Below are positions 7,358 through 22,739 of a DNA stretch of 64,000 bases, piece by piece. The stretch is from Patescibacteria group bacterium. Lineage in GTDB: Bacteria > Patescibacteriota > Patescibacteriia > UBA9570 > JAHJKD01. Under the pieces are notes generated by a model. That model did no database searches and was not told the origin of the DNA. It saw nothing but the letters and a program-made list of their open reading frames with translations. Made by a program: the position numbers and the translations under genes. How positions within the stretch are numbered: position 1 is the stretch's first letter; each line of letters begins with the position of its first letter. Where the stretch lies: contig JAHJKD010000003.1 of NCBI GenBank assembly GCA_018822435.1, positions 1,208 to 65,207 of the forward strand, read 5' to 3'.

Positions 7358-7359
7358 AA

Positions 7360-7575: not shown

Positions 7576-7596
7576 AAATTAAAATAAAAAGAAATA

Positions 7597-7658
7597 AAAT
7601 ATGGGTGAAGTGAGGAGGAGGTACGACGACGAACGGAACCGCATACACGCTGTTAAAC
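7597..7658. repeat. attC-like half-site E (conserved core, right arm and end box)
   Basis: AATATGGGTGAAG...GAACCGCATACACGC-T-GTTAAAC. Its terminal box GTTAAAC is the exact reverse complement of box GTTTAAC at 8241..8247, across the def cassette. Confidence 0.5.
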
Positions 7659-7673
7659 GAAGTCAAGAAAAAT

Positions 7674-8219
7674 CTATGTTATATAATTTATTATTTTATG
7701 AATTACATTGAGCTTCTTTTGATCATACAATTCATCTATTGAAATTAAGTTCTTACAATCCTGAATTCTATCAATATATAAAATAGCATCAAGGTGATCA
7801 ATCTCATGTTGAACTAATCCTGCGAGTTTCCCTGAAAAATTGTACATACATTTTTTGCCTTGATTATTATACGCTTTGATAGTGATTTTTTTAAATCTTT
7901 TAACAAAGCTGCGCAAATAGAAAAAACTAAGGCATCCTTCACGGTTATTGATTAATGCTTTAGACTTTTGAATGATTTGCGGATTGATAAAAATATTAAA
8001 CTTTTCTTGATGATATATAATTATTATACGAACAGGATACCCTAATTGTGGCGCACAGAGCCCATTCCCATGGGAAGATGATATTCTTTTTATTGCCTTC
8101 ATTAATCTGATAATTTTACGAGATATCATCTGGACATCTTTTGATTGAATAGACTTAAGAGGTATCCTTTTAGATTTTTTCCGTAGGATAGGATTACCTA
8201 ATTGAAGAATTTTTTTCAT
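7674..8219 (-). CDS. def: Peptide deformylase, second divergent copy carried as a cassette
   Basis: All three PDF motifs are present: GNGLCAPQLG (motif 1, GxGxAAPQ with A changed to C), EGCLS (motif 2), QHEIDHLD (motif 3, HExxH). A canonical def-fmt pair sits at 59.5-60.9 kb. Confidence 0.8.
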   Translation of the reverse strand: MKKILQLGNPILRKKSKRIPLKSIQSKDVQMISRKIIRLMKAIKRISSSHGNGLCAPQLGYPVRIIIIYHQEKFNIFINPQIIQKSKALINNREGCLSFFYLRSFVKRFKKITIKAYNNQGKKCMYNFSGKLAGLVQHEIDHLDAILYIDRIQDCKNLISIDELYDQKKLNVIHKIINYIT

Positions 8220-8240
8220 AGAAAGATTTTTCTCGATTTT

Positions 8241-8334
8241 GTTTAACGTTCCTGGCTATGCGATGTTGCGACCGAAGGGAGCAATATGGGTGAGCTCTCT
8301 CGAAAGAGAGCGAACCGCATAGCCAGTGTTATGT
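8241..8334. repeat. attC-like structured repeat D
   Basis: GTTTAAC-GTTC-CTGGCTATGCG-ATGTT ... AATATGGGTGAG-CTCTCTCGAAAGAGAG-CGAACC-GCATAGCCAG-T-GTTATGT. The 11-bp arms CTGGCTATGCG and CGCATAGCCAG are perfect complements. End boxes fit RYYYAAC and GTTRRRY. Confidence 0.6.
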
Positions 8335-8382
8335 GTTGTAATTAAATTCAGCGAGCGAAGCGAGCTATATTATTGGGGTAAT

Positions 8383-9201
8383 TTATTCTTCGAAAATTTT
8401 TTCAAAGAATTTAACACGAGATTGTTTTGGATTGGGTAATAACATAATTTCTCTTAGATTTTGTATTTTACCATCTCTGATGAGTTCGGATAATATATCT
8501 AATACGGTAGAATTCTGGCCAAATATAACTCCGCCCGGCTTACATACTCTAACCATTTCTTCCATGAGGGCATAGTTATAATCTGATTCCGGTGGAGTAC
8601 CCTGCTTGGGACGAATGATAGTGTCGTCCATTCCATTGATCACCAAATTAGCTGAATCAGACGGTGCCGTGGCAAGAGTTAATAGCACATCGTCATTGAT
8701 GTAGTAACCATTATCTAAATTCGGCATTCTGATGGATTCTGGATTTGCTGGCGGGAGTGTGTGTTTGGCCTTAGCATTTTTTGAATCAATACCGATATAT
8801 TGACTTGCTCCAAATTCTTTGACTATGTTGCCAATAGAAAAATTCGCATCTTGTAAGACTCTTTCACCACAACCTAAGTCAATTAAGATTTGTCCATTTA
8901 GCTTTTGCTGTAGATATTCTTTAATTTTTTGTCGGACTTCTGGCGACGATTCCCCATAGGGACGACTCTCTTCGTCACCCAATCCTGCCCAGTAGTCAGC
9001 GAACTCGGTTTGATAACCTCCAAATTCTGTGTGCTCAATTATCTTGGTATATATAATGAGTCTGAGCTTTTCATCAAAATTTTCATCTTTATTCCAGTCC
9101 TCAGCTTTGCTAAGAGGCGGAATTAGATTTTGGATACGGAAAAAATTTCCGATATCAAATTGACTTTCTTGTTCTCTTCTTGGTCCTCTTTCAATGCTCA
9201 T
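8383..9201 (-). CDS. Class I SAM-dependent methyltransferase (orphan, substrate unknown)
   Basis: Motif I ILIDLGCGE (hh[DE]hGxGxG) and post-I CKPGGVIFG. No adjacent restriction partner. Confidence 0.6.
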   Translation of the reverse strand: MSIERGPRREQESQFDIGNFFRIQNLIPPLSKAEDWNKDENFDEKLRLIIYTKIIEHTEFGGYQTEFADYWAGLGDEESRPYGESSPEVRQKIKEYLQQKLNGQILIDLGCGERVLQDANFSIGNIVKEFGASQYIGIDSKNAKAKHTLPPANPESIRMPNLDNGYYINDDVLLTLATAPSDSANLVINGMDDTIIRPKQGTPPESDYNYALMEEMVRVCKPGGVIFGQNSTVLDILSELIRDGKIQNLREIMLLPNPKQSRVKFFEKIFEE

Positions 9202-9269
9202 ATTTCAAATAATAAATTGCCCCAATAATATACTTTTCTGCGACAGCAGAAAAGGAATTTAATTATTAC

Positions 9270-9396
9270 ACATAACGTTCCTGCGTATGCGATGTTTGCC
9301 AGTGGTATAATTGCACGAAGTGCTTACCACTGGCAAATATGGGTGGAGGCTTGCGGAGGTACGGAGCAAGCCGTAACCGCATACGCAGTGTTAGCT
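9270..9396. repeat. attC-like structured repeat A
   Basis: ACATAAC-GTTC-CTGCGTATGCG-ATGTT-[hairpin GCCAGTGGTA..TACCACTGGC]-AATATGGGTGGAGG-[hairpin GCTTGC..GCAAGC]-CGTAAC-CGCATACGCAG-T-GTTAGCT. Arms are perfectly complementary. The left box is the reverse complement of D's right box. The right box is the reverse complement of B's left box. Confidence 0.65.
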
Positions 9397-9460
9397 GATG
9401 TATTCCTTTTCTTTTCCGACGATAGTCGGTTGTTTTAAAAATTTTCAAATTTCTTTTTCC

Positions 9461-9592
9461 GTTTTGGGTGGTGGGCAGAGGGGAATTAAAGGGGTGAATG
9501 CCCGCCACCCAAAACACCTATTTCTGGTTTGAGGGAGGGGCAAGAGGGGAACAAAAGGGGTGAATTGCCCCGACCGAAAACTCTCTATTCTA
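9461..9592. repeat. Two tandem ~60-bp G-rich hairpin repeat units
   Basis: Unit 1 is GGGTGGTGGGC-AGAGGGGAATTAAAGGGGTGAAT-GCCCGCCACCC-AAAACACCTATTTCT. Unit 2 is GAGGGAGGGGC-AAGAGGGGAACAAAAGGGGTGAATT-GCCCC... The conserved core AGAGGGGAAnnAAAGGGGTGAAT is enclosed by a stem in each unit. Confidence 0.5.
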
Positions 9593-10334
9593 CTTGTCCA
9601 ATCTCTTTTCTGTATAAACAGTAGTCACAATCTTTGTCTGCCTTTGGTATTTTGTCATTTTCCAAGCACTTCTTGATATCTTTTAATGTTTTCTCTACCC
9701 AATCGTCACTTCCGATGTATTCAATAAGGTGAATATCAAATTCTAGTTTTGCATCAAAGGCTTTTTCATCTGGTCGTCCTGTGCAGTATACAAAATAACC
9801 TGTATTTGACATTTTGAGACCGTTTTGGCGTAAGAGCCACTGATATACTTCCATTTGCCTCTTATAGCCGTCCTGCCAGTCTTTATCCAGCTCTGTGACA
9901 GCTTCTGATTTTGCAGTAGCCTTGTAGTCTACAACAATGTATTCCTTTGTTTTTGGATCAAGCCACAAATCATCAATTGCTCCGCTGACGATAAAACCTG
10001 TTGGCTTGTGTGTGCACTCAACGCCTTTAAAGTTTTCTCTCCAAATATCTAGCGATTCGTGGGCTATAGGAATAGCATTAATGCCGTATTGTTTTTGTAT
10101 GGCGTGTTGTTCGCCGTTTGCTCGGTGTGCGTCAAATTCTGTTTTTAGGAGGTTGTCTACCGCGCTATTGAGTGAAAATGGATATCCGGGCGGTCGTTTC
10201 AATCCAAGTTTGTTATCCAAATAAAAACATTTTGGACATTGCTGGAATAAATCTATTTTTGAGCGTGAAAGACGCCAGCGTTTTCCGCCGTAGTTCCAGT
10301 CTGCTTTTCGTGGGATTGAGTAGTAGTCGGACAT
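9585..10334 (-). CDS. PD-(D/E)XK nuclease family protein with four Cys (Cas4/RecB-nuclease-like fold)
   Basis: Motif GAIDDLWLD...EYIVVDYKAT (D ... [D/E]xK). Cys pairs CPKC near the N-terminus and CDYC near the C-terminus suggest a metal or Fe-S site. Confidence 0.5.
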   Translation of the reverse strand: MSDYYSIPRKADWNYGGKRWRLSRSKIDLFQQCPKCFYLDNKLGLKRPPGYPFSLNSAVDNLLKTEFDAHRANGEQHAIQKQYGINAIPIAHESLDIWRENFKGVECTHKPTGFIVSGAIDDLWLDPKTKEYIVVDYKATAKSEAVTELDKDWQDGYKRQMEVYQWLLRQNGLKMSNTGYFVYCTGRPDEKAFDAKLEFDIHLIEYIGSDDWVEKTLKDIKKCLENDKIPKADKDCDYCLYRKEIGQVE

Positions 10335-10364
10335 GAAATTTAATTATTAATTAATATTTATTCA

Positions 10365-11576
10365 TCAAATCAGTTTCTTGGCCTTGCGATACATTTTTTT
10401 ATATGAATTTTCATTCACTTTCCTCAAAAACAATTTAAGGTCATTTTTTGCAATGATTTTATCTCCAAAGTAATACGATAATATCCCACTTCCATAAAGC
10501 AAGGCTGGTTCTTTATTTTTTTGGTATTCATTATTCAAAAATTCTACTACCTCAAGTGGATTAAATCCCAGTCTTTCAACTGGAATTGAAACTAACTTCT
10601 CATAACATTTAAAAGCACTTTTATAATTTTTCTCTAATATCTTAAAAAAGGCTAAATCAACAATTGTAAGCGTAGAGCTGGGGTATTTTTGTTGAAGTTC
10701 AGTTACGACTTTTTGAGCTTCTGCAATTTTTCCTTGTTTATACAAAAATGTAGCTAAATTTGTTAGTGCAAAATGATTATTCACATCGAGTTTCAAAATT
10801 TTATTACAAAATTCAATGCCTTTATTAAAATCTTTTTTATTTAAACCAAATTCAACAACTAAAATTGTATAATCATCAATAAGGTGGATAGCTGTGCTTT
10901 GTATTAAATCATCATTCCTTTTAGCTAGACTGTTATACAAACGTTCTAATAGAGCGATACTCTTACCAATTTTTCCATAAATCTTTAGTGAAAGCGCTAT
11001 TGTATATATTGATAAATCGAAGATATTGTTTGAAACGATTTGAATATCCTCAAATGAGTTATGTTCGATAATGTTCCAGTAATTTTTTCGTGCCATTCTC
11101 GACCTTAAATCTGCCAAAATCATTTTTCCTATTCTCTTTTCCTTATCATCTGGATGACCAAACGTAAAACTTAAATTTAATTTATTTATGTTGTTTCCAT
11201 CTTTTTTTAGGTTATCAACTGTGAAATCTCCCCATATAATCAAATCAATGTCTTTTTTATTTCTAAATTTTTCTGCTTCTTCCTGATTTTTAAATTTTTT
11301 AATATCTGAAAAATCTTGAACAACTACATATTTATCTAAATCTTGTTCTTTTAGGACTTGATTTATGTTTTTCTTTATTTGTTTGAAATAACTTCCAGAG
11401 TTCAAACCTTCATCAAATTCTATAGAAAGAGCGATGTTAAAATTAGCTGGAAACCATTGGAGTTTTCTTGCTCTGAGCCAATTATATAATTGCTTACGAT
11501 AAGTCCAACAGGCAGTCCCCAAGCCCCCTATTATTAGTAATATCAGCCCACTTATTATAGATTCAGTAATTTCCAT
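10365..11576 (-). CDS. Membrane-anchored protein with a C-terminal TPR-like repeat domain (unknown function)
   Basis: N-terminal TM helix (IISGLILLIIGGLGTA). Central domain without known motifs. C-terminal helical repeats of ~34 aa (ALTNLATFLYKQGKIAEAQKVV, AFFKILEKNYKSAFKCYEKLV). Confidence 0.45.
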   Translation of the reverse strand: MEITESIISGLILLIIGGLGTACWTYRKQLYNWLRARKLQWFPANFNIALSIEFDEGLNSGSYFKQIKKNINQVLKEQDLDKYVVVQDFSDIKKFKNQEEAEKFRNKKDIDLIIWGDFTVDNLKKDGNNINKLNLSFTFGHPDDKEKRIGKMILADLRSRMARKNYWNIIEHNSFEDIQIVSNNIFDLSIYTIALSLKIYGKIGKSIALLERLYNSLAKRNDDLIQSTAIHLIDDYTILVVEFGLNKKDFNKGIEFCNKILKLDVNNHFALTNLATFLYKQGKIAEAQKVVTELQQKYPSSTLTIVDLAFFKILEKNYKSAFKCYEKLVSIPVERLGFNPLEVVEFLNNEYQKNKEPALLYGSGILSYYFGDKIIAKNDLKLFLRKVNENSYKKMYRKAKKLI

Positions 11577-11631
11577 AATTTATTTTCATTACATTTTTCG
11601 AATATATTGAATTGTTAAAACCAAAAATATA

Positions 11632-12879
11632 TCATTTTACCAATTCACCACGAAAAGCTTTCCGGAACAGTGATTGTTGAATTTTATCAGTACGACTTTT
11701 AGCTTCTTTATATATATTTCTGGCTTCATTGACTTTACTTTTTATCATAGTTAGACGGTCAACAATCTTTTCTTGCTCCTCAATCGGCGGTAATGCTATT
11801 TGATATGTTTTAATATAATCAGTAGGAACACGAGCTTGACCCGCCGTCCCCGTCATATGTTGTTGCGCAATATGCCTAAAATAATCACTTCTTAAAATTG
11901 AATAAATGAATTTTGCATTTAGTCTGTCTGAGGGTCTAATGACATGAAATTCAGTAGTCCCAAACCCAATTCCATTAACCAAGTTATTAGCAATCGCTGA
12001 TTTACCATTTTCCATACAAGGTGTGATTTTTGCAAACAAGACATCGCCATTCTTGAAATAAGTGTAACCTTTTCGTACTTTTCCAATTTTTCTTATTTCA
12101 GGTGTTTCAATTTTCCCTGTATGCTCGTTTACTGCAGCCATTGGCACAAAACTAACATCTGTATCATCAGAAATATCTTTGACTTCGCTTTTTTTGGGAT
12201 TTATTTCAGCAATATCTTGTAATTCGACCATTTCCCAGCCTTCAGGTAGTACACTTTCATCATCTGGAATAAGCTTATGGAGTGCTGAAGACATTACGTT
12301 GGCTAAACGTATTTCAGCTTCAAAAAGTAATGACGTTGATTTTGTTAAAATACTTTTTGACTCGTTAAGTTTCATTAAAATCTCTTTTTGATTTGGAATT
12401 GGCGGAAGTGGAATTCGAAGATCTTTAATTATCGTTTGGCTTATATTTGATTGCGCCCCACCAAAACCCTTATCAATTAGGTTATCTTTTTCATTTATAA
12501 GATAAATTTTTAAAAAATCCTTTAAGATTTTACTTTCATCTGGAAAGAATGCACAAACGGCTTGGTTTGTTGTAGCTTCTATGCCAAGTTCAGCTGTTTG
12601 ACCAATGTTTGCTCCGTACATAGCCATTAAAAAAGTTCCTTTGGGTAGAATCTTTACGTTACTTGATTTTAAAGCATCTTTTGTGATTTTTTCTTCTGTT
12701 TCAAAAATTATATTTTCTTTTAATTCACCTGATTTTACCCAAGAAATTTTACCATTTTTATAAAATTCTTTATTGTTTCTACTTGGAGTTCCACCACTGG
12801 TTGTCTTACAAACAGTTTTTAGTTCTACCATTTTCCAGCCAGCAGGAAGTTCTATTTCATTATTTTTCATAATATACAT
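11632..12879 (-). CDS. hsdS: Type I restriction-modification specificity subunit HsdS
   Basis: Two target-recognition halves, each ending in the conserved motif LPPIxxQxxI (LPPIPNQKEIL and LPPIEEQEKIV), plus coiled-coil spacers. Confidence 0.8.
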   Translation of the reverse strand: MYIMKNNEIELPAGWKMVELKTVCKTTSGGTPSRNNKEFYKNGKISWVKSGELKENIIFETEEKITKDALKSSNVKILPKGTFLMAMYGANIGQTAELGIEATTNQAVCAFFPDESKILKDFLKIYLINEKDNLIDKGFGGAQSNISQTIIKDLRIPLPPIPNQKEILMKLNESKSILTKSTSLLFEAEIRLANVMSSALHKLIPDDESVLPEGWEMVELQDIAEINPKKSEVKDISDDTDVSFVPMAAVNEHTGKIETPEIRKIGKVRKGYTYFKNGDVLFAKITPCMENGKSAIANNLVNGIGFGTTEFHVIRPSDRLNAKFIYSILRSDYFRHIAQQHMTGTAGQARVPTDYIKTYQIALPPIEEQEKIVDRLTMIKSKVNEARNIYKEAKSRTDKIQQSLFRKAFRGELVK

Positions 12880-12885
12880 AGTTAA

Positions 12886-14244
12886 TTATCCCAATTCCTT
12901 TTGTAAATCTTCTAATTTATCTATCGCTTCTTTTAAAAAGTTTACACTTTCTTCAATTAAAACATTTGGCTCAGGAAGATTTGAGGGGTCATCGAAACTT
13001 TCATCTTTAAGCCATTTTAAATCTAAATTAAAATTTCTTTTTTTCAAATCTTCAAATAGGAATTTCTTCCATCGTTCTGTTTCCTGGTCTCTATTTTGAT
13101 ATTTCTCAAGAAAATCATTAAAGTATTCAGATTTTAGCGGTTTCCTTTTGGAAATTTTTTCTACATTTGTACGCAAGTCGTAAAACCACAAATTTTCTGT
13201 TTTCTCTCCTGTCTTTTCAAAAAAGATAACATTGGTTTTAACCCCAGGCGTATATGGTGTGAATGTTCCGTTTGGTAATCTAATTATGGTATGTAGATTA
13301 AAATTTTCTAAAAGCATTTTTCGTATTTTTGTCCCTGCTCCTCCTTCAAATAGAACGTTGTCTGGCATTACCATCGCACACCGACCACCATTTTTTAAAA
13401 TACTCATACAATGTTGTAGAAAGTTTAGTTGACGACTTTTGGTTACAACAAAAAAATCATCCCTACTATAAGAAACGCTGTTCGTTTTTTTGAAGGGCGG
13501 ATTTGTAAGAATTACATCATACCCATCGCCATACTTTTCTTTCAAAGAATCACCATAGGTAATTTGACCTTCTATTTCATGTAGATAAAGATTCATTATA
13601 CAAAGTCTTCTCGTTTCCCAAACAAATTCACCTCCTGAAATGGCTTCTTTTTGCAAAAAATCATATTCCTCTCTTTTTAAGCTCTTTTTTTCTTTTTCAA
13701 GCTCTTTAAAAATATACTCAAATGCTTCAATTAAGAATCCCCCCGTACCACAGGCAGGGTCATGGATTGTTTCATTGTGTTTAGGGTTTATACATTTAAC
13801 GATTGTTCGAATCAGTTCACGAGGGGTAAAATACTGACCAGCGCCTTTCTGTTCTGCTGCATATTTTGCGAGCAACCCTTCGTAAGCTGCTCCTTTAACA
13901 TCTATATCAATAGAAGACCACTCTTCATCGTCCAAAGCTCCAATTACTTTGTTTAGGCTAACAGGATTTCTAAATTTATTGTTTGATTGAGCAAAAATAT
14001 CTCCAAGCACTCCGGCTTCTTTTCCAAGATTCTTCAAAACTACTTCATAATGCTCAATAAGAGCCATGCCACTATGATTCATTAAAGTTTGCCAACTGTA
14101 TTCACTTGGTATACGAATACCTTTTTCATCAGCCATTTTGAGAAACAGCAAATATGTTAATTGTTCTATATAGTCACCATAATGCATACCTTCATCGTGA
14201 AGATTTCCTGCTAATGACCAAAGTTTTTGTACGATATCTGACAT
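12886..14244 (-). CDS. hsdM: Type I R-M N6-adenine DNA methyltransferase HsdM
   Basis: Motif IV NPPF (ILTNPPFKK). SAM-binding region DPACGTGGFL. N-terminal HsdM helical domain. Confidence 0.85.
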   Translation of the reverse strand: MSDIVQKLWSLAGNLHDEGMHYGDYIEQLTYLLFLKMADEKGIRIPSEYSWQTLMNHSGMALIEHYEVVLKNLGKEAGVLGDIFAQSNNKFRNPVSLNKVIGALDDEEWSSIDIDVKGAAYEGLLAKYAAEQKGAGQYFTPRELIRTIVKCINPKHNETIHDPACGTGGFLIEAFEYIFKELEKEKKSLKREEYDFLQKEAISGGEFVWETRRLCIMNLYLHEIEGQITYGDSLKEKYGDGYDVILTNPPFKKTNSVSYSRDDFFVVTKSRQLNFLQHCMSILKNGGRCAMVMPDNVLFEGGAGTKIRKMLLENFNLHTIIRLPNGTFTPYTPGVKTNVIFFEKTGEKTENLWFYDLRTNVEKISKRKPLKSEYFNDFLEKYQNRDQETERWKKFLFEDLKKRNFNLDLKWLKDESFDDPSNLPEPNVLIEESVNFLKEAIDKLEDLQKELG

Positions 14245-14257
14245 AGTATTTTAGTTA

Positions 14258-16939
14258 TTACATTGGTTGTAAAATATGTTCATTTATACGCTCTAGGGTT
14301 TCATTCAATTTACCTTCAAAATCCCTATTTGCTTTTGAAAAGCCACCCTTTCTACTAAAAGGCAATGAACGAAAATCGCTAGACTCTACAATGATATTTG
14401 TTTCAAGGTGGATTTTTATATCATCAAGCCATTGTTGCTGTGGCTCAGTCTCGCCCTCAAGTAACATTATCTTAAATGCTTTTTCTATACGTTGTCGTGG
14501 TGTATATAATTTTGTATTCCACATGGCGTGTGAAACAAATGCATATAAGTCAGCTGGGGTTTTAGTATGAGTTGCAATTTCATTTGCGCGTCTTAAATTA
14601 TCTTCTGTGAACCGTTCAGGTGTTTTTGCTAATTCATTTTTAAGCTCCTTGAAATGTTTCATTGAAAATTGTCTTGGTGAATTTAAAAGTATTTTAAGTG
14701 CCTCAATTGTCTTAGCATTTTGCTTAATATATTGCTTAAATGTTTCTAAGTAGTCTTTTGGTTTTAATTCTCTTCCGTCTGTAGTTCGAAAAATATATTC
14801 GGAGGTTGCAATTTCTGCCTTTTTTTCTTTAGAAATTATGAAACCTTGCCTGTAACGAGGGTAATTTTGTAAAAATTCAAGAAAATTAGGGTCTGACATT
14901 TGATTTAGAGCTTCTTCTTCTTGCTGAGCAAGCCTATCTTGAATACTTAATGAGAATTCTTGCAAGTTACCATCTGGTACTGCAAAGCGATTTTCAAGTT
15001 CTTTCCTCCCTTCTTCTGTTATATTCTTATCTACTCTTTGCAACTTCCTAGAAAGAGATTTCACGTTATCTTCAATATCTTTTCCATCACGAATTTCTTT
15101 AATGATTTCACCATAAGTCTTTCCAGCTTTCGTAATTGGTTGCATTATATCTCCGCCTTGCTCCTTCATGAAATCTATTACGCCAATAGCATCAAATACT
15201 GTGAAATGAGTTTTGTTAATATCTTTACAAAGCCGTGTGCCTCTACCAATCATTTGTTCGTAAAGAATTCGTGAACGAATAGGTCTTGCAATAAGCAAAT
15301 TTTCAATTGCTGGCACATCAACACCAGTAGAAAGCATATCAACGGTGACAACTATCCGTGGTTTTTTTAGATTTCTAAATTTACGAATTAGCTCATTTGG
15401 CTTATCGACGGTATAAGTTATTTTTTGAACAACATCATCACCTTCACCTAATTCTTTTCTAAATAGCTTTACCAATTGATTTGCATGTCGCTCATTAACA
15501 CTAAAAACTAAAGTTTTCTCATCTTTTCCAATATATTTACAGACTTCTTTAACAATTTTTCGGTTTCTATCTTCAACAGTCACTTTTCTCTCTAATCCGC
15601 TTGTATCAATATGCAAATCATCATCAAGAAGCTCATCTTTATGTTTTTTGGTTTTCCATTCCTCTATTGTAACTCCTTCTCCTTTTGAAAAAGATACTTC
15701 TTCTTTCATATCTATATCTGTTCGTATTCGTACTGCATCGAAATCTACTAAATATCCATCATCTACTGCCTTTAAATAGCCGTAAGAATACAGATCCTTT
15801 TCATCATGAACATCAAAATATGCTGCTGTGTGAGCTGCAGGCGTAGCAGTCAGTCCAAATTGATGTACATCAAAGTAATCCAAGACATATTTCCATTTAT
15901 TATAAATCGATCGATGGCACTCATCAGATATAATTAAATCAAAAGAATCAATTGGAAAATTCTTGTTATATTCAATTGGACTATCATCCCCGTCAGCCCA
16001 TTCATCTTCTGTTTTAACATCTACACCACTATCTCTGCCTTTAAGCATAGAATACAGTCTTTGTATGGTAGATACATAAACAAATGTATTTGATTTCTTT
16101 CTCTTTTTTAATTGTGATGGCTGTAATACCTCAGCATTATAATCAATTTTTTCACCATCTTCAGGCGTTGGTATCTTGTCACAATAGACAGAATATAAAG
16201 TATCAAATTTATTACCTTTTTCAGGTTCAAATGTTGAAAGAGCCGTTACTGTTTGATCTGCTAAACTTCTTCTATCAACCAAGAATAAAATTCTTTTAAA
16301 ATATCCAGACTTCATTAAATGATACATTAAGGCTGAAGCTGCAAATGTTTTTCCCGTACCAGTTGCCATTGCAATAAGCCCCATTCGTTTATTGTTCAGC
16401 AATCTGTTAACAACATATTCTGCGGCTTCTTTTTGATAAAATCTTAAAGCACGGTCGCCGTAAACAGTTTTAATCTCTTCGTTTTGAAGATACTTTATTG
16501 CGTTATTTTTATCTTCGGAAAGTCTTTCTGTTAAACTTTCTGGTGTATGAAAACCTTCAACTGCTCGACTAAAACTAGGTGATTCTCTTAAATTTTGAAA
16601 CCGTATATCTGTACCATTAGAGCTGTATACAAAAGGCACTTTGTAGCTGCCATACTTAGATTCAAAACCTTCTAAATCTTCTGCGTATCGTAAAGACTGG
16701 GTTAATACGCCATCAATTTGAGTTCCTTCCTTTTTTGCTTCAACTACACCTACAGGTTTACCATCAATTGTAAGTAAGTAATCAGCATCACCTGAGCTTG
16801 TAGGATATTCATAAATAGCCTCACAATCACTCCCTTTGATATCCGTTTTTCGCGAGACAACAGACCAGCCTGCTTTTTCAAGCAGTTTATCAATTTTTTC
16901 TGAACGTGTTTTTGATTCTTTAGGCATATTAAATTTCAT
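14258..16939 (-). CDS. hsdR: Type I restriction enzyme HsdR (helicase/nuclease subunit)
   Basis: Walker A MATGTGKTF and DEAH-box DECH (SDECHRS). N-terminal PD-(D/E)XK-type nuclease region. 893 aa. Confidence 0.85.
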   Translation of the reverse strand: MKFNMPKESKTRSEKIDKLLEKAGWSVVSRKTDIKGSDCEAIYEYPTSSGDADYLLTIDGKPVGVVEAKKEGTQIDGVLTQSLRYAEDLEGFESKYGSYKVPFVYSSNGTDIRFQNLRESPSFSRAVEGFHTPESLTERLSEDKNNAIKYLQNEEIKTVYGDRALRFYQKEAAEYVVNRLLNNKRMGLIAMATGTGKTFAASALMYHLMKSGYFKRILFLVDRRSLADQTVTALSTFEPEKGNKFDTLYSVYCDKIPTPEDGEKIDYNAEVLQPSQLKKRKKSNTFVYVSTIQRLYSMLKGRDSGVDVKTEDEWADGDDSPIEYNKNFPIDSFDLIISDECHRSIYNKWKYVLDYFDVHQFGLTATPAAHTAAYFDVHDEKDLYSYGYLKAVDDGYLVDFDAVRIRTDIDMKEEVSFSKGEGVTIEEWKTKKHKDELLDDDLHIDTSGLERKVTVEDRNRKIVKEVCKYIGKDEKTLVFSVNERHANQLVKLFRKELGEGDDVVQKITYTVDKPNELIRKFRNLKKPRIVVTVDMLSTGVDVPAIENLLIARPIRSRILYEQMIGRGTRLCKDINKTHFTVFDAIGVIDFMKEQGGDIMQPITKAGKTYGEIIKEIRDGKDIEDNVKSLSRKLQRVDKNITEEGRKELENRFAVPDGNLQEFSLSIQDRLAQQEEEALNQMSDPNFLEFLQNYPRYRQGFIISKEKKAEIATSEYIFRTTDGRELKPKDYLETFKQYIKQNAKTIEALKILLNSPRQFSMKHFKELKNELAKTPERFTEDNLRRANEIATHTKTPADLYAFVSHAMWNTKLYTPRQRIEKAFKIMLLEGETEPQQQWLDDIKIHLETNIIVESSDFRSLPFSRKGGFSKANRDFEGKLNETLERINEHILQPM

Positions 16940-16957
16940 TACATTGTTCTGATTGTT

Positions 16958-17173
16958 CTAACCCTGATTTTCAGGTGAACTTTTTTTCAAGAATGTTATT
17001 ACGTCTTTCTTGTGATAGCGTCTTGGCTGCGTATCACTTGGACGAAAGGCTTTAAGTAGTCCTTTATCGTCCCAACGTCTTAATGTCATAAGAGAAACTT
17101 GTAGTATATCTGCAACTTCCCGAAGGGATAGTATTTCCGGCATATCCTTTAATTGGTCTACTAGGTTTTTCAT
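16958..17173 (-). CDS. Small HTH DNA-binding protein (MerR/excisionase-type helix-turn-helix)
   Basis: 71 aa. LSLREVADILQVSLMTLRRWDDKGLL is a typical excisionase/MerR-family HTH. Located between the GmrSD-like gene and hsdR. Confidence 0.5.
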   Translation of the reverse strand: MKNLVDQLKDMPEILSLREVADILQVSLMTLRRWDDKGLLKAFRPSDTQPRRYHKKDVITFLKKSSPENQG

Positions 17174-17183
17174 AACAATAAAA

Positions 17184-19250
17184 TTAAGAAGAATGCTTAT
17201 TAAGTGATTGCTGTATTAAGAAAATGGCATAATCAATCTCCTCAGGCTCAGATAAGCTTACTTCTACATCTCCATTTCCCCAGCGTCCTAAATCCGTAAC
17301 ATCTTTTGCCATTCCTTTTGGGTCATCAAGTTCCTCAAATTTCATATTTAGAGAAAGTCTTAATCTGGTTTTTTGAGGGACAACATCTACAAAGTTTGTT
17401 GAAGTTTTGAAAGCTATGTAGAGCTTCATACATTCTTCTCTAATCTCTGGATTTAAAAGCATGATTCGCTCTTTTAATAGCTCGTAGAGAGTGAACATGT
17501 CGCCTTGTAGGTATTCATAATCTTCAATGTTGTAATCAGCTTCTTTTTCTGGTTGTAAGTCTTTTTTGTACTTCTCCAATATCTCATCAGATAAAACTGG
17601 AGCTTTCCAGATTTGCAGGGCTTCTTTGCTTAGAGTTTCGGCTCGTTGTTTAATCGTTTCTTCATTCCAAGTATCAAGGTCTATTAAATCTTTATTTAAA
17701 CGCACAGAGCTTTCTTTAAATCCTTTCTGCATATCTCTTTTTTCTGTGAACGATTTATTACTCATATCAGAGTTGTACCCCGTAAGAGTAAGATTTCCGA
17801 TAGTGTGCAAATACTCACTTTGGATTCTCTGGAAGTCCTCTCCAAGTGCTTCCTTCCATTGAGGGGTTAAGGTTTGAGGCATGATATGCTCAACGCTCAA
17901 ATCATCAAGATTTACTCGCTCTTTATTGTTGTGGTGTTCAATTTTCTCGAAGAGATAACCGCTATTTCTGAAATTGTAAACATCTTTCTTGGCTAGCTCC
18001 TCCTTAAATTCACTATCCTTAGGAAGTCGGTGATAGCTCTCTCGTAGTATGAAATTAGCCATGAGGCTTTCAATGTAATTCTCTGGCTCGATTTCTTTGT
18101 AGAGGTTCGCAAAGGTCTTATTAAGGGAATTGGTAGGAATACCACAAATAGCACGTCTAAAGACGTAGCATTCAACCAGTTTGAGAACTTCAATGAAATC
18201 TTCCTTTGTGATTATGTTGTTTTCGTAATCATCATAAACACTCATCAGGAATGGGTAAGCTACCTCAACCTTTAGAGTTCTGATGTTGTTAATTATCTCG
18301 TTTATTTGATTGTCTTCTTCTTTGTTAAATTCAAGTTTGGCGTAGTACTTTGAAAACTTGTGGACGTCTGCCACTACCTCTTCAATTTCTCTTCCGAAAA
18401 TATACTGCTTGTATGTTGTGTAAACTGAATCTAGGGTTGGGATTGAGCCTGTTTTGATAGTAAGGAAGCCACGCATGAAGTAGTCAAACTTTTCTTCATT
18501 TTGACCTTCGATAAAAAGGCTCTCCATTGGTAGCCAATACTTGGTGTAAATTTCTTTCTGATGGTCTGGCTCAAGCCCCATGAGAACATAATTCCTAATA
18601 AGGTCAGATTGAGACAAATCCAGTCCGGTAGAATTAAGACTTTCAAAAATAAGCTGAGGGTTGTCCTCTCTATCTAATGCAATATCAACAATGATAAGTT
18701 TTCGTATTCCTTTGAATAAATCATCAAGGTTAATGTTGCCTTTTTCTATTTGAGTAACAAAAAATAGGTAATTTTGGTAAATACGTTCGATTTCTTCATC
18801 TTTTGATATTTCTTCACCATCAACCAATTTTCTAAATACTTCTTTGTCATGTCGTGTAAGGCTTAGTTTAATTCGTTTATCATCTTTACTGTACTCATTC
18901 ACAAGGAAAGAGTTCATGATTTGACGTTTTGTAACCTCGTATTTCTCCTCCGATTTCTTCAAGGCATTCACCATTGCCAAGAAAAGCAATGACAGGGTTG
19001 TCAGTCTCTGCTGTCCATCAATTACAAGAGCCTGATTTGTACCTGCGATGTTATACATGCCAGCGGCTACATAAACGACCGAACCTATAAAGTGAGCAGG
19101 AACTGTATCATCAGTCGAAACTCGCAAAATATCATTCCAAAGTTGCTTACATTGGATTAAATTCCAGCTATAGGTACGCTGATAAATGGGAATAATGAAC
19201 TGCTGTTCTTTATTGATGAACGATATAAAATTGGTTTCTAATGCCTTCAT
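17184..19250 (-). CDS. GmrSD-like type IV (modification-dependent) restriction endonuclease, DUF262 plus DUF1524/HNH
   Basis: N-terminal DUF262 motifs YQRTYSW and IDGQQRLTTL (ParB/Srx-like NTPase). C-terminal His-Me finger LSVEHIMPQ (DUF1524). 688 aa. Confidence 0.75.
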   Translation of the reverse strand: MKALETNFISFINKEQQFIIPIYQRTYSWNLIQCKQLWNDILRVSTDDTVPAHFIGSVVYVAAGMYNIAGTNQALVIDGQQRLTTLSLLFLAMVNALKKSEEKYEVTKRQIMNSFLVNEYSKDDKRIKLSLTRHDKEVFRKLVDGEEISKDEEIERIYQNYLFFVTQIEKGNINLDDLFKGIRKLIIVDIALDREDNPQLIFESLNSTGLDLSQSDLIRNYVLMGLEPDHQKEIYTKYWLPMESLFIEGQNEEKFDYFMRGFLTIKTGSIPTLDSVYTTYKQYIFGREIEEVVADVHKFSKYYAKLEFNKEEDNQINEIINNIRTLKVEVAYPFLMSVYDDYENNIITKEDFIEVLKLVECYVFRRAICGIPTNSLNKTFANLYKEIEPENYIESLMANFILRESYHRLPKDSEFKEELAKKDVYNFRNSGYLFEKIEHHNNKERVNLDDLSVEHIMPQTLTPQWKEALGEDFQRIQSEYLHTIGNLTLTGYNSDMSNKSFTEKRDMQKGFKESSVRLNKDLIDLDTWNEETIKQRAETLSKEALQIWKAPVLSDEILEKYKKDLQPEKEADYNIEDYEYLQGDMFTLYELLKERIMLLNPEIREECMKLYIAFKTSTNFVDVVPQKTRLRLSLNMKFEELDDPKGMAKDVTDLGRWGNGDVEVSLSEPEEIDYAIFLIQQSLNKHSS

Positions 19251-19369
19251 AATTGAAATTTAATTAATTTTCTCAGGTTATACAAAGTATTACAAAGTTA
19301 GTATAACAATTCTAGTGTTTTTCACAAGAGAATGAAGGGAAGAGAAGAGCTGTATATTATAAAGAGTTG

Positions 19370-19500
19370 TTCCGCCGATAGGCGGAACTCCATATATTCC
19401 CCTCATTAAAAAAGCGTTTCCGTAGCGTAGCGGAGGAAACACCATATTTCCCCTTATAAATAAATCGTTTTCGGAGCAAAGCGGAGAAAACACCTTATAT
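19370..19500. repeat. Three tandem ~45-bp hairpin repeat units
   Basis: Units are GTTCCGCC-GATA-GGCGGAAC-TCCATATATTCCCCTCATT, GTTTCC-GTAGCGTAGC-GGAGGAAAC-ACCATATTTCCCCTTAT and GTTTTC-GGAGCAAAGCGGAG-AAAAC-ACCTTATATCCACTC. Hairpin stems differ between units but the tail nCCATATnTCCCCT is conserved. Confidence 0.5.
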
Positions 19501-19582
19501 CCACTCTAAAAATAAAGAAAAAGAAATTTGAAAATTTTTTAAAACAATTGGGCGATAGCCCAGAAAAGAAAAGGAATATTTC

Positions 19583-19697
19583 AGCTAACGTTTCGGCATA
19601 TACGATGTTGCACGGGTGTATAATAGCCGACAGGCTACACCCGTGCAATATGGGCGGAGCGACCATCGGGAGCGTAGCCGTATATGCCGTGTTATAT
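19583..19697. repeat. attC-like structured repeat B
   Basis: AGCTAAC-GTTT-CGGCATATACG-ATGTT-[hairpin GCACGGGTGTA..TACACCCGTGC]-AATATGGGCGGAGC-...-CGTATATGCCG-T-GTTATAT. Arms are perfect complements and covary relative to A and D. The left box is the reverse complement of A's right box. The right box is the reverse complement of C's left box. Confidence 0.65.
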
Positions 19698-19721
19698 GAT
19701 GTAATTTATCAAAATTTTTTA

Positions 19722-20870
19722 CTATTCTATTTTTAATATTTTGCAATCCACGAGATATGGCGACTTGAAATCTGTCATTTCGCCTGCTTTTTTGCCTGGA
19801 ACAGGAAATAATCTTGCTGATAATGGCTTATCTAACTTAATTGCTAAAGTCGCCATATCGAGAAGTGTCGCTTCAATCTTTTCTGCTGGCGTGTCGCCTG
19901 GAATTGGAACTGTGTCTAAACCAACACCGCAAACTGCTGAATATAAAAGCAGGTTAGTAATGCCGTAGGTAGCTTCATTTGCTCTCGTTGCAAGTCCAAG
20001 GTCTTCGCATACTGGGAGCATAAGACCAGAATAGCCACATATCTTAACTGACAAACCTTTGAGTACACGAGTGACCAAAGCAGAAATTGTAAGTGTTCCT
20101 TGACTTCCAAATTTGCCAAAGCCGAGTTTTTCAAAAGCAAAAGCAATACTTTCATGCTCCTCAAGTCCTGGATTTAGTGAAGCATCAATACCATTATAGC
20201 CAATGCCAAAGTCTTTTGAAATCTGTTGAGCTAAATCGGCGACTTTCTTAGTTTCTTCTTCAAATATTGCTTTTAGGTTTTGCTCTGCTTCTATGAGATT
20301 GCTTGATTTTGAAAATGCCTTCACGGCTAAGTCTCCGCACTCCAAGCCAATACCGAAAGCGGTTTCTCCCTCGTGAAAACCGGTAGGAAAGAACGGAATA
20401 CCTGGCTTACAATTTGCGGAGGCGCAGAATCTAAAATTGCCGTAACCGTTTTCGGTTTCCTCTGCAATTCGTTTGATAACTTGAGCTGCTATTTTGGCAT
20501 TTTCAAAATCTATTCCACTTTCCTTGTCGCCGATTTTGGCGGAGCATGAAATTTGAGAGGTAACTTTATTAAATTCAGGAATGAGTTTAATTTTATCTGG
20601 CGTTTTTGCGTAGCCCATATTGAAAAAACTTACGTCGAGGCTTTGGCAAATTTGTTCTATTTTTTGAATCGCACTTACAATTTCTGCGTCTGAAAGACTA
20701 CCAAGATATTCTTCCCATGAATTAGTGGCTATTCTGGTCGTCTGCACTTCATAACCTGCTTTTTCAAACACTTCCTTAGCTTTGCGATTGAATTCAGCAG
20801 TTTGTCTTATTTGATCTTCAATATCAGGTGATTGAAGCGACACGCCAGTTGTTATTGTTCTTATTTTCAT
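19722..20870 (-). CDS. DUF711/UPF0210-family protein
   Basis: N-terminus MKIRTITTGVSL resembles the conserved DIRTITMGISL start of UPF0210 proteins. 382 aa, shorter than typical family members. Assignment is from memory of the family signature. Confidence 0.45.
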   Translation of the reverse strand: MKIRTITTGVSLQSPDIEDQIRQTAEFNRKAKEVFEKAGYEVQTTRIATNSWEEYLGSLSDAEIVSAIQKIEQICQSLDVSFFNMGYAKTPDKIKLIPEFNKVTSQISCSAKIGDKESGIDFENAKIAAQVIKRIAEETENGYGNFRFCASANCKPGIPFFPTGFHEGETAFGIGLECGDLAVKAFSKSSNLIEAEQNLKAIFEEETKKVADLAQQISKDFGIGYNGIDASLNPGLEEHESIAFAFEKLGFGKFGSQGTLTISALVTRVLKGLSVKICGYSGLMLPVCEDLGLATRANEATYGITNLLLYSAVCGVGLDTVPIPGDTPAEKIEATLLDMATLAIKLDKPLSARLFPVPGKKAGEMTDFKSPYLVDCKILKIE

Positions 20871-20912
20871 GGTGCGAAATATTAAAAATTAAAAATTTTG
20901 ATAAATTATTTC

Positions 20913-21001
20913 ATATAACGTTTCGGCATAGCCGAAGTTTGACGGGTGTAAAATACGCCGAAGGTGTACACCCGTCAAATTTGGGTGAGCGAGCGTTAAA
21001 A
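20913..21001. repeat. attC-like structured repeat C (variant)
   Basis: ATATAAC-GTTTCGGCATAGCCGAAGTT-[hairpin TGACGGGTGTA..TACACCCGTCA]-AATTTGGGTGAGCGAGC-GTTAAAA. The left arm self-pairs here (TTCGGC-ATA-GCCGAA). Confidence 0.5.
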
Positions 21002-21021
21002 ATAAAATTGTTTTTATTCGT

Positions 21022-21462
21022 TTAGAATAATAACTTGTATGTTACTCCTTCTTTCCATTGTGGATTTTCCCATTCTTTGAAATCAAAATTTTCACATAGA
21101 TTTCGCATAGGAGAATTTTTAAAAGCGGTTTCTGTAACAACTCCTGTAGCTTTTTTGTTTTTTGCGTGTTCAATACATCTACCCATCAGTTTTTTTCCTA
21201 TACCAAGCTTTTGAAAATATGGATCAACGAGTATTTCACGGATGAAAAAGAAATTGTCTTCCCACCAACCTCTGTCTATAGAACAAAAAGCCACAAATTC
21301 AGCTCCTTTCTTTGCGATAAGATAAAGGCTATCTTTTAGCTGAAAGTGTTTTTTTAGTGAATCTATTGTGGCTTTGTCGTAGGTATAATTGAAAGATTTT
21401 TTATTACGTAAAAAATCAATTTCTTTTTCATTTTTCATCTCTGTAATTTTGATTTCATCCAT
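21022..21462 (-). CDS. GNAT-family N-acetyltransferase
   Basis: Acetyl-CoA-binding motif A QKLGIGKKLMGRCIEHAK (Q/RxxGxG/A). About 145 aa, the typical size for a single GNAT domain. Confidence 0.75.
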   Translation of the reverse strand: MDEIKITEMKNEKEIDFLRNKKSFNYTYDKATIDSLKKHFQLKDSLYLIAKKGAEFVAFCSIDRGWWEDNFFFIREILVDPYFQKLGIGKKLMGRCIEHAKNKKATGVVTETAFKNSPMRNLCENFDFKEWENPQWKEGVTYKLLF

Positions 21463-21483
21463 AGAATTAAAACAATTTTATTT

Positions 21484-21513
21484 AGCTCGCGAACCGGCTA
21501 TGCCGTGTTAGCT
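21484..21513. repeat. Truncated attC-like site G (arm plus end box only)
   Basis: AGCTCGCGAACCGGCTATGCCGT-GTTAGCT. Resembles only the right arms of A, D and E. Box GTTAGCT is the reverse complement of AGCTAAC at 21783..21789. Confidence 0.45.
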
Positions 21514-21521
21514 GAAGTTAA

Positions 21522-21752
21522 TTATTTTTCCCATTTTAAGTATGCCCTAATATTTAAGGCAATTAGGATTATGCAAACAATTACTCCAGGCCAGATTTGA
21601 GCCATGTAGTTGACTATGATCCACGCTATATTCGCAGCAATATAGATTATGAACGCATATCTTTTTTTATTGCCAATTAGGTAAACAAAAAGGAGTGAGC
21701 CTGTCATAGCTATCCAGTCTATACCATAGTAATTGCCAATTATATGTTCCAT
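21522..21752 (-). CDS. Small hypothetical membrane protein (2 TM), first cassette next to the attI-like region
   Basis: 76 aa with two hydrophobic helices. No assignable family. Confidence 0.35.
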   Translation of the reverse strand: MEHIIGNYYGIDWIAMTGSLLFVYLIGNKKRYAFIIYIAANIAWIIVNYMAQIWPGVIVCIILIALNIRAYLKWEK

Positions 21753-21917
21753 ATAGAAAAATAATTAATTTCAGCTAACTGGTTATTATACGAAGTGTTT
21801 TCATATAATATGCATGATTTAGGGTGTTATGCGGCTATTGCGGAGAAGGGAAGATTGCTGTAATATTTTAAATAACATCCTAAAAACATCTTCTAATATA
21901 CTTAAAATTCATCAATT
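21753..21917. promoter_or_regulatory. attI-like region and divergent promoter zone between the recombinase gene and the first cassette
   Basis: Contains box AGCTAAC (21783..21789) complementary to the first cassette's GTTAGCT, a TCATATAA element resembling the starts of repeats C and F, and a GTTATGC box (21836..21842). AT-rich with several -10-like hexamers. Promoter positions were not resolved. Confidence 0.4.
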
Positions 21918-22739
21918 ATGCAAGATTACCTCAAAAAGGCAAAGGAAGAGCTTTTGGTTCGGAATTATAGCCAAAAGACTATTAAAAGTTATACTTCTTG
22001 TTTGCGGAACTATTTTGAATATTTAGATTCTGTTGGTTTTGATTTGGGAGTGGTGGACAGGGAAGTGATAAAAAAATTCTTATTAAAGAAAAAGGGGAAA
22101 GGGTATTCACCACAAACTTTGAATCTTTTTCTCAATGCGATTAAATTTTTTTATAGAGAAATTATTAAATCACAGGAGGAAATTGATTTGAAGTTTTCCA
22201 AACGGTCGCAGAAATTGCCGGTGGTGCTATCGCGCAATGAAATCCAGCTCATCCTAGATGAGGTCGCTAATTCCAAACATAAGCTGCTGATCGGGTTGAC
22301 TTATGGGGCAGGCTTAAGGGTGAGTGAAGTCATAAATTTGAAGGTCAGGGACATTGACTTGGAGAGAGGAGTAATTGCTGTCCGAGCCGGGAAAGGGGAT
22401 AAGGATAGGATCACGGTTTTGCCTGAAAAATTATCGTCTGAAATAATGGCTAGGATAAGGGGAAGGAGTGGGCCGGAGTTTGTTTTTGTCAGTGAACGGG
22501 GCGGACGGTTGACAGCAAGAACAGCACAGAAAGTATTTGAAAATGCTTTGCGGAAGGCAGGGATCCAAAAAGATGCCACTTTTCATTCATTGCGCCATAG
22601 TTTTGCGACTCATTTACTAGAGAGCGGGACGGACATCAGATATGTGCAGACATTGTTGGGACATCGCAATATTCGGACCACGCAAATTTATACCCAGGTG
22701 AGCACGGCTAATATCAGGGCCATTGCCAGCCCGCTATAA
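21918..22739 (+). CDS. Site-specific tyrosine recombinase (XerC/XerD/IntI superfamily), the presumptive cassette integrase
   Basis: C-terminal catalytic region with R (LRVSE), K (GKGDKDR), HxxR (HSLRHSFATHLL), R and Y (HRNIRTTQIYTQV). N-terminal core-binding domain. Only 273 aa, and the segment between the KxxR box and HxLRH is ~58 aa, too short for the IntI-specific insertion. Confidence 0.85.
   Translation: MQDYLKKAKEELLVRNYSQKTIKSYTSCLRNYFEYLDSVGFDLGVVDREVIKKFLLKKKGKGYSPQTLNLFLNAIKFFYREIIKSQEEIDLKFSKRSQKLPVVLSRNEIQLILDEVANSKHKLLIGLTYGAGLRVSEVINLKVRDIDLERGVIAVRAGKGDKDRITVLPEKLSSEIMARIRGRSGPEFVFVSERGGRLTARTAQKVFENALRKAGIQKDATFHSLRHSFATHLLESGTDIRYVQTLLGHRNIRTTQIYTQVSTANIRAIASPL

Follow-up and report, generated by a model that had tools for sequence, protein, structure and literature searches.

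A gene for a compact tyrosine recombinase, carried on a 64,000-nucleotide stretch of contig JAHJKD010000003.1 from a Patescibacteria group bacterium (the whole stretch is called the window here), lies beside an attI-like site and diverges from an array of attC-like sites. Our analysis, conducted wholly in silico, makes it quite probable that this gene encodes the integrase of an integron-like cassette platform widespread in Patescibacteria (the Candidate Phyla Radiation, CPR). With less assurance, we lean towards the stronger proposal that an Xer-like recombinase devoid of the I2 helix of integron integrases runs a complete integron, with a duplex attI, folded single-stranded attC sites, and mobile cassettes. 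The IntI additional domain is missing from the enzyme, the attI is conserved, the attC sites are oriented and covary, cassette ends are complementary, and differences in cassette content break at (Y)AAC. An earlier, sequence-only reading of this DNA had suggested a non-canonical attC recombinase belonging to an undescribed integron-like system, and the attI, oriented arrays, cassette ends, and cassette turnover now lend that suggestion computational support. Its alternative, a housekeeping Xer protein next to an array resembling a cluster of attC sites lacking an integron integrase (CALIN), is disfavored by the absence of a skew flip at 18 loci and by the recurrent adjacency of gene and array, with a dual role possible. 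In the literature that we searched, we found no prior account of integrons or attC arrays in CPR/Patescibacteria.

A recombinase without the IntI additional domain

The open reading frame (ORF) is exactly as the sequence-only reading had described it, and the protein contains the complete catalytic set (R134, K159, H223, R226, H249, and Y258), which is invariant among its homologues. Pfam assigns it a Phage_integrase domain and N-terminal SAM_4/SAM_1 domains, and its C-terminus reads ...ASPL, IntI likewise ending in SPL. The distance from the KGDKDR box to HSLRH, measured from KGxK[DE]R to HxLRH, is 58 amino acids (aa), as had been estimated, and is comparable to the 66 aa of Escherichia coli XerD and the 62 aa of XerC, versus 100 aa in IntI1 (our reference being 100% identical to the annotated intI1 of NC_002134.1). 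That reading had also held that the IntI-specific insertion appears to be lacking, and alignments, profile searches, and a structure model agree. A multiple alignment with IntI1, XerC, and XerD revealed no insertion and left 42 IntI1 residues (12+19+11) without counterpart in the window protein and its homologues. A phmmer search of the PDB paired the protein with VchIntIA (2a3v) in two blocks (query 4-176 with chain 5-177, query 200-273 with chain 244-317), with about 43 IntI residues unmatched, and with archaeal XerA (4a8e), its best PDB sequence match, in a single block. TIGR02249, the NCBIfam model of the integron integrase, also matched in two stretches (216.7 bits, below its cutoff of 265). 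The AlphaFold2 model (pLDDT, a per-residue confidence measure, 83.6) has the standard fold, with the extra helix absent from the insertion region; Foldseek searches with this model returned the Vibrio integron integrase 2a3v as the top match (E 1e-15), in an alignment spanning 316-318 columns for the 273-residue query, followed by XerA structures.

Relationships, which we judged from pairwise scores, shared indels, and nearest representatives, point to both IntI and XerA. Identity to IntI1 is 37% and to XerC/D 30-31%, and the window protein has two small deletions relative to XerC/D in common with IntI1. It scores just over the cutoff of NF040815 recomb_XerA_Arch, named 'site-specific tyrosine recombinase/integron integrase' (229 bits against 220), far under those of the XerC and XerD equivalogs (198 and 197 against 335 and 330), and below that of the IntI1 equivalog NF011946 (142 against 435). 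The enzyme has an IntI/XerA-like backbone from which the IntI insertion is missing: the additional domain, with its I2 helix near patch III, by which integron integrases are recognized is not there, and by way of NF040815 the protein classifies as a simple tyrosine recombinase matching an Xer model.

The exact window protein is also recorded from 'Patescibacteria group bacterium' GCA_018825215.1, and Patescibacteria/CPR metagenome-assembled genomes (MAGs) supply homologues by the thousand, about 270 aa long, about 60% identical, and without exception ending in SPL. The best 120 of these are 266-291 aa long, none with the excess of about 40 aa that the insertion would give, and no catalytic-domain insertion is present in 16 that we aligned. 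The family is very probably the 'Cand' subgroup, Xer-related simple tyrosine recombinases found in candidate phyla only (Smyshlyaev, Bateman, Barabas 2021; PMC8138268), and its taxonomic restriction is consistent with this assignment. The 'Cand' group was presented in a passage on taxa lacking Xer, as a presumed Xer substitute (PMC8138268). Both are short, Xer-related, and restricted to candidate phyla; the difference is that 'Cand' was published as a sequence group only, with no attI, attC arrays, or cassette function described.

The nearest relatives among representatives at 50% identity are mostly insertion-less. One relative, P0129 (MBT6068452.1, Candidatus Peregrinibacteria; 324 aa, 53% identical), carries about 30-35 inserted residues where IntI has its additional domain, and these are without the IntI RKYP/Trp motifs. 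TIGR02249 spans P0129 end-to-end in one stretch (231.8 bits, below the cutoff), and the DNA upstream of it (L101 1-2313) contains an attI and bulge-type attC as in the rest of the family. To judge from these features, P0129 may be an intermediate, or the insertion position may be a hot spot, and the direction of evolution is left undecided by it. Upstream of the more distant relative P0161, where sites were not scanned, we saw co-directional housekeeping genes and no sign of a cassette array. Among the records of loci L002, L017, L018, L026, L036, L049, L053, L056, L061, L075, L077, and L080, which have a CPR-type integrase and an attI, several are titled Actinomycetota, Gammaproteobacteria, Bdellovibrionales, or Pseudomonadales, and one isolate name among these includes 'PATE'; such titles probably reflect mislabelled taxonomy or mis-binned contigs and not real hosts.

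A conserved attI and an oriented array of folded sites

In a comparative set of 80 related loci, obtained from a scan of species-representative genomes, a regular expression found the attI consensus (ATTTC-nnn-YAAC, then TCGTT-TnTATRCGAA) 102-173 nt 5' of the start codon at 47 loci, and the window has it as well. This count leaves out L049, L061, and L080, where the expression picked attC-type sites, and the motif is visible by eye in further loci that it missed (e.g. L009, L018, L027). Overall, an attI-like core some 105-150 nt 5' of the gene is present at nearly all of the 80 loci. About 32 of the 47 positive loci have a second arm, TATRCGAA, between +51 and +53. The core consists of inverted arms about 7 bp apart, and in L035, L057, and L062 it forms a perfect palindrome. 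Contigs end less than 700 nt upstream of the integrase gene at 30 of the 80 loci and less than 700 nt downstream at 4; those of L008, L024, L059, L075, L084, and L099 start at YAAC or 1 nt before it, and L084, an independent Logan contig from the window's own organism, begins exactly at the attI TAAC. A conserved motif beside the integrase gene, with variable sequence to the left of its YAAC, is what an attI that receives cassettes presents. The exact 35-nt attI of the window had no matches in JGI metagenome contigs.

At many loci (L014, L016, L021, L026, L049, L058, L061, L063, L066, L068-L070, L072, L077, L080; the window is not among them) a GC-rich element of nested palindromes lies directly beside attI, for example TAACGCGCGCGGAT...CGCTGTTATCTGATGT...ATCCGCGCGCGTTATCTGAAATG-short loop-CATTTTAGATAAC abutting TCGTT. 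It may be a composite or 'empty' attC.

The attI core has a dif-type architecture of inverted arms and spacer, and the main job of the enzyme could be dimer resolution at an adjacent dif, with the cassettes as hitchhikers in the manner of integrative mobile elements exploiting Xer (IMEX). We consider this unlikely; it overlaps our own proposal if the enzyme has a dual role. The passing score with NF040815, the XerA structure 4a8e as best PDB sequence match, the strong conservation and wide distribution of the family in Patescibacteria, the publication of 'Cand' as Xer-related, and the classic inverted arms with their spacer of about 7 bp, perfectly palindromic in some loci, all speak in its favor. 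The chromosomal setting does not: a terminus-type GC-skew flip occurred at the site in none of the 18 loci that extend 8 kb or more to both sides, and 13 of the 18 had the same sign on both sides (the test used about 10 kb per side, and gene orientation contributes to skew). The window likewise shows no GC-skew inflection once gene orientation is considered, and the chromosomal neighborhood of the integrase locus varies between lineages. A pure dif role, moreover, leaves the accessory arm, the oriented arrays, and the cassette turnover unexplained, and the core is accompanied by multiple related hairpin sites. A dual role that includes dimer resolution is possible for the window enzyme.

Across the comparative set, a strict geometric scan for compact attC-like sites, covering 329 kb upstream and 629 kb downstream of the integrase genes, detected 66 upstream sites sharing the geometry of the window, as against 4 upstream with the geometry reversed and 1 and 2 downstream, an enrichment upstream of about 125-fold in a single orientation. 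Loci with a full 10 kb upstream had at least one site in 20 of 26 cases and at most eight. In 36 arrays, 97% of the residues of cassette ORFs are encoded on the strand opposite the integrase gene, i.e. pointing away from it.

Could an unlinked recombinase, such as a canonical IntI encoded elsewhere, service these arrays, making each a CALIN that happens to adjoin an xer-like gene? CALINs are common in bacteria and archaea (Ghaly et al. 2022), and our search for another enzyme covered the window and 10-kb flanks, not whole genomes. Within that range there is no second tyrosine recombinase, neither in the 64-kb window nor within 10 kb of any of the 80 loci. The adjacency, the divergent orientation, and the conserved attI recur in dozens of independent genomes, the arms of the attI by the integrase gene match those of the attC sites, and a canonical IntI would have to read attC sites that have no extrahelical bases. 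We therefore regard this explanation as very improbable and the adjacent window-type enzyme as the likely catalyst. Since the window enzyme would probably fail the intI_Cterm criterion, IntegronFinder might call the array a CALIN despite the adjacent tyrosine recombinase.

An alignment of 32 attC sites from 22 loci (21 related genomes and the window) defines a common fold, a three-way junction. Its R stem (TAACG/TGTTA) is set off by a 3-nt bulge (TTY) from an L stem of 10 bp, beyond which come hairpin 1 and, carried on a GGT/ACC stem, hairpin 2. On the + strand, the 5' half of a site reads ATTTYnnnYAAC, GTTYC, L'' (10 nt, site-specific), hairpin 1, and AAWWTGGGTG, and the 3' half reads hairpin 2, GAACC, L' (the reverse complement of L''), GT, and GTTRnnnGATGT. 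Paired cells make up 95.7% of the alignment versus 73.5% after shuffling, and the covariation score, 0.518, falls to 0.126 on shuffling and does not exceed 0.10 when the 3' partners are slid; those helices that lay outside the selection of sites are 86-99% paired, with many compensatory changes. The L stem comprises 10 contiguous pairs (97.8% paired) and has no extrahelical base. G·T wobbles are conserved at two pairs of the site, the R box reaches 12 bp in length, and AAWWTGGGTG and GAACC are conserved inner motifs. Folding favors the + strand over the minus strand by 2.8-4.3 kcal/mol, and the R box pairs in the + fold only. Like integron attC sites, these are imperfect palindromes in which structure is kept over sequence; the extrahelical L-box bases of the folded bottom strand are absent, and asymmetry resides in the 3-nt bulge of the R-L spacer and in the wobbles. 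Judged from the fold, bulge and wobbles would give these sites the asymmetry for which canonical attC sites rely on extrahelical bases, an arrangement that fits an enzyme without the domain that reads such bases.

Strong hairpins with conserved G·U-type wobbles are also typical of RNA structures, and the repeats might instead be structured RNAs, terminators, or elements resembling repetitive extragenic palindromes (REP), unrelated to the recombinase. Rfam at gathering thresholds and ARAGORN gave no matches anywhere in the window, and the sites thus match no Rfam family, tRNA, or tmRNA. The folding strand is antisense to the cassette genes, and the complementarity of cassette ends and the strain breakpoints at (Y)AAC (see below) are signatures of recombination, leaving this explanation scarcely credible.

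The window array comprises five attC-like sites within 6695-21510, upstream of and divergent from the integrase gene, and the ORFs of all five cassettes are on the minus strand (Table 1). Two sites are 'split' by whole genes, with inner hairpin stems that are not only preserved but longer than usual. In attC a, the stem of hairpin 1 measures 22 bp and its loop, of about 850 nt, holds a Fic/DOC ORF (6719-7357); in attC e, hairpin 2 has a bulged stem of about 21 bp and a loop of about 460 nt that holds a GNAT acetyltransferase ORF (21022-21462). Long-span split sites (200-1600 nt) are modestly enriched upstream in the comparative loci, with 24 found versus about 10 expected from the downstream rate, and we use just the two window cases, which were checked by eye.

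Table 1. Coordinates of the integrase gene, attachment sites, and cassettes in the window; a slash within a core marks the predicted crossover.
Feature	Coordinates	Strand	Description
Integrase gene	21918..22739	+	273-aa tyrosine recombinase, CPR family (very probably 'Cand'-type, XerA/IntI-like), without the IntI additional domain
attI-like site	21768..21835	+	Upstream of the integrase gene; matches the family consensus
attI R arm ATTTCAGCTAAC	21768-21779	+	Predicted crossover in TAA/C, 21776-21779
attI spacer TGGTT	21780-21784	+	
attI L arm ATTATACGAAG	21785-21795	+	
attI accessory arm TATGCGGC	21828-21835	+	+52 from TAAC
attC a	6695-7655		TAAC to GTTA
attC b	8244-8331		TAAC to GTTA
attC c	9273-9393		TAAC to GTTA
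attC d	19586-19694		TAAC to GTTA
attC e	20916-21510		TAAC to GTTA; L''/L' = GGCATAGCCG/CGGCTATGCC
Cassette 1	20919..21778	-	76-aa PnuC C-terminal fragment ORF (21522-21752) and attC e
Cassette 2	19589..20918	-	attC d and DUF711 ORF (19722-20870)
Cassette 3 (10.3 kb)	9276..19588	-	attC c, PD-(D/E)XK nuclease, TPR protein, type I restriction-modification HsdS/HsdM/HsdR, GmrSD, leader module
Cassette 4	8247..9275	-	attC b and 272-aa ORF of unknown function (8383-9201)
Cassette 5 (distal end of the array)	6698..8246	-	attC a and peptide deformylase ORF (7674-8219)

The leader module of cassette 3 (about 150-250 nt; window ~19340-19588) recurs at the integrase-proximal end of unrelated cassettes in many genomes and adjoins attI in L005, L018, L029, L048, L050, L057, L074, L087, and L098. 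It is made up of tandem hairpins of the type CGTTTTCGNAGCGGAGCGGAGAAAAC then ACCTTATACCCC, followed by ...GGGCGATAGCCC...GGAATATTTCAGCTAAC. It could be a cassette-borne promoter/leader or a mobile cassette end, and its conservation suggests cassette-borne signals. At the attC-proximal end of the same 10-kb cassette, two tandem imperfect hairpin repeats of 55 nt (GTTTTGGGTGGTGGGC...GCCCGCCACCCAAAAC) occupy 9461-9581. Genes for the biosynthesis of nicotinamide adenine dinucleotide (NAD) lie downstream of the integrase gene at 23252-27580 (nicotinamide mononucleotide (NMN) adenylyltransferase-like, NadA, NadC, NadB), and the cassette fragment nearest attI derives from a PnuC-type nicotinamide riboside/NMN transporter, a match that is maybe coincidence. 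Farther away, at 40502-40563, a near-perfect intergenic palindrome of 31+31 nt with no spacer is probably a bidirectional terminator.

Signatures of cassette recombination

Both ends of an integrated integron cassette come from one R box, and the two halves of each attC belong to neighboring cassettes. The same relationship is found here: the three variable bases of the R box are perfectly complementary between R' and the R'' of the next site (or the attI junction) in 41 of 65 cassettes, versus 7 of 71 when the same bases are compared within a single site. Covariation with the partner tends to extend to a fourth R-box base (e.g. GTTG with CAAC). All five window cassettes have complementary ends by this test, among them cassette 1 (GTTAGCT and AGCTAAC) and cassette 3, whose ends GTTAGCT...AGCTAAC are complementary over 10.2 kb.

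Differences between strains, which we observed for two other integrases of the family and not for the window organism, place the crossover at the same bases. Three contigs (L085, L086, L091) encode the identical integrase P0103 and identical downstream genes with different arrays: one has a cassette with methyltransferase (MTase) and ResIII and then other cassettes, one has this same cassette and then chromosomal genes, and one begins with an EcoRI-methylase/GmrSD/SIR2 cassette. Three unrelated sequences stand in front of one and the same attC in these contigs, which become identical from TAAC onward. Integrase P0049 has three different junction partners at attI, one of which has only AAC in common with the others, locating the crossover inside AAC. 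P0103 and P0049 thus each occur with two or three different first cassettes. As in integrons, the exchange maps to the R-box triplet (G/TT on one strand, AA/C on the other), and position 0 varies with the cassette. Defense genes abound in the cassettes: besides those of the 10.3-kb window cassette, the alternative cassettes of the P0103 contigs encode type III-like restriction-modification, EcoRI-like methylase, GmrSD-HNH, SIR2, and AAA_13.

These signatures also bear on the manner of recombination, which might be conventional double-strand exchange between duplex half-sites (R''-spacer-L''), the mode that has been put forward for Acinetobacter pdif modules. An enzyme without I2, the domain held responsible for single-strand recombination, would fit such a reaction, as would the resemblance of the left half of each attC to the duplex attI core. 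Duplex exchange, however, gives no reason for a site-specific and perfectly covarying L''/L' or for the covariation of the inner helices, nor for an outer R' that complements the R'' of the next site, and it leaves unexplained the G·T wobbles and bulge that give one strand alone a fold with a paired R box. We judge it quite unlikely and favor a folded single strand of attC as the substrate.

Several points weigh against an I2-less integron. The I2 domain is reported to be necessary for attC recombination in the canonical system (PMC7790495, PMC4792948), and an I2-less enzyme that recombines attC is unprecedented. The unusual conservation and wide distribution of the family are what one would expect of an essential housekeeping Xer, and the family has appeared in print as a presumed Xer substitute (PMC8138268). 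The strict scan finds no site in 6 of the 26 loci with 10 kb upstream, and the search for other recombinases reached across the 64-kb window and 10 kb around the 80 loci and not across whole genomes. Single-stranded substrate and replicative resolution, finally, are drawn only from the covariation of the palindromes and the complementarity of the cassette ends.

A proposed mechanism and its relation to known systems

We propose that the enzyme would bind two inverted arms, ATTTC-N3-YAAC and its partner xTA-N3-GAAxT, which would be met as ordinary duplex in attI, just 5' of the integrase gene, and would also arise by intrastrand pairing when the bottom (+) strand of attC folds into its three-way junction of R stem, 3-nt bulge, 10-bp L stem, and two inner hairpins. 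Both the duplex attI and the folded attC do carry the motifs ATTTC-N3-YAAC and TAT-NN-GA in their arms. One strand would be cleaved and exchanged at YAA/C, and the resulting junction would probably be resolved by replication, as in integrons and CTXphi integration. Circular cassettes would in this way be inserted at attI, and excision would proceed via attC x attC recombination. The choice of strand and the avoidance of a second exchange may come from the 3-nt bulge and the two G·T wobbles, and not from extrahelical bases read by I2.

In architecture and crossover logic the system is an integron, but it lacks two defining features, namely the IntI additional domain and extrahelical bases in the L box. 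As in class 1 integrons and the Vibrio superintegron, the integrase gene diverges from the array with attI beside it, the cassettes are co-oriented, the sites are imperfect palindromes of the form R''-L''...L'-R' with YAAC/GTTR cores, the crossover maps to AAC (G/TT on the other strand), both ends of a cassette trace to one R box, and the cargo includes Fic/Doc, GNAT, and defense systems. Unlike those integrons, the CPR system has an integrase without the additional domain and I2 helix (58 versus 100 aa between the boxes) and attC sites with a 3-nt R-L bulge and two G·T wobbles in place of L-box extrahelical bases, with an R box of up to 12 bp, conserved AAWWTGGGTG and GAACC, and a three-way junction; some attC loops hold whole genes, and the hosts are Patescibacteria. 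Archaeal integrons resemble it in lying outside the classical bacterial hosts and in being found in MAGs, often fragmented or called CALIN. Archaeal IntIs, however, are reported to keep the IntI-specific additional domain and canonical attC folding (Ghaly et al. 2022), whereas the CPR enzymes are without that domain.

In mechanism, CTXphi is the closest precedent, one that has only the hairpin-mimic principle in common with the CPR system. In CTXphi, a folded single strand mimics duplex dif and is recombined by the I2-less XerCD, with replicative resolution (PMC4792948, PMC7790495). Single-stranded DNA IMEX of this type likewise combine an I2-less Xer-type enzyme with a folded hairpin that mimics a duplex core and has no extrahelical bases. 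The window elements, in contrast, are promoter- or ORF-sized cassettes in arrays and not phages, and the window cassettes contain no replication or phage genes by which such an IMEX would be recognized. The CPR system also has a dedicated, conserved attI with an accessory arm beside the recombinase gene and not at a skew-defined terminus, and a single recombinase versus the XerC/XerD pair.

The single-recombinase systems XerA/dif, XerS/difSL, and XerH/difH are alike in their compact simple tyrosine recombinase and inverted-arm core, and for XerS and XerH the site is immediately beside the recombinase gene. The CPR site differs in being flanked by cassette arrays and related hairpins with no terminus signal, and contigs with an identical integrase vary in what is inserted there. 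In Acinetobacter, Xer-type pdif sites similarly bound gene modules that move between replicons, but these are duplex XerC/D sites of 28 bp that alternate in orientation on plasmids, whereas the CPR sites are long folded palindromes in a one-directional array with a dedicated integrase and attI.

Escudero and colleagues described I2 as necessary for cassette capture and found in no other protein, and noted that evolutionary intermediates are lacking, such that I2 and attC pose a 'chicken-and-egg' problem (PMC4792948, PMC7790495). If our proposal is correct, the IntI additional domain and extrahelical bases would be dispensable for integron function, and the CPR system would be either a living example of the hypothesized pre-I2 integron ancestor, resolving the chicken-and-egg problem, or a convergent, independent origin. 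Natural sequences would then allow the origin of integrons to be tested directly. At least one large survey kept 'complete' integrons only, a class resting on an IntI-specific model, and surveys limited in this way would have a blind spot for integrons of the CPR type. The enzyme and its short, well-defined sites could also provide a new tool for site-specific recombination. Integron-type gene capture would extend to the Patescibacteria/CPR, a large and little-studied radiation whose mobile elements have been little described, and the observed cassettes encoding restriction-modification, GmrSD, SIR2, and AAA_13 would point to a route for the exchange of defense systems among these tiny genomes.

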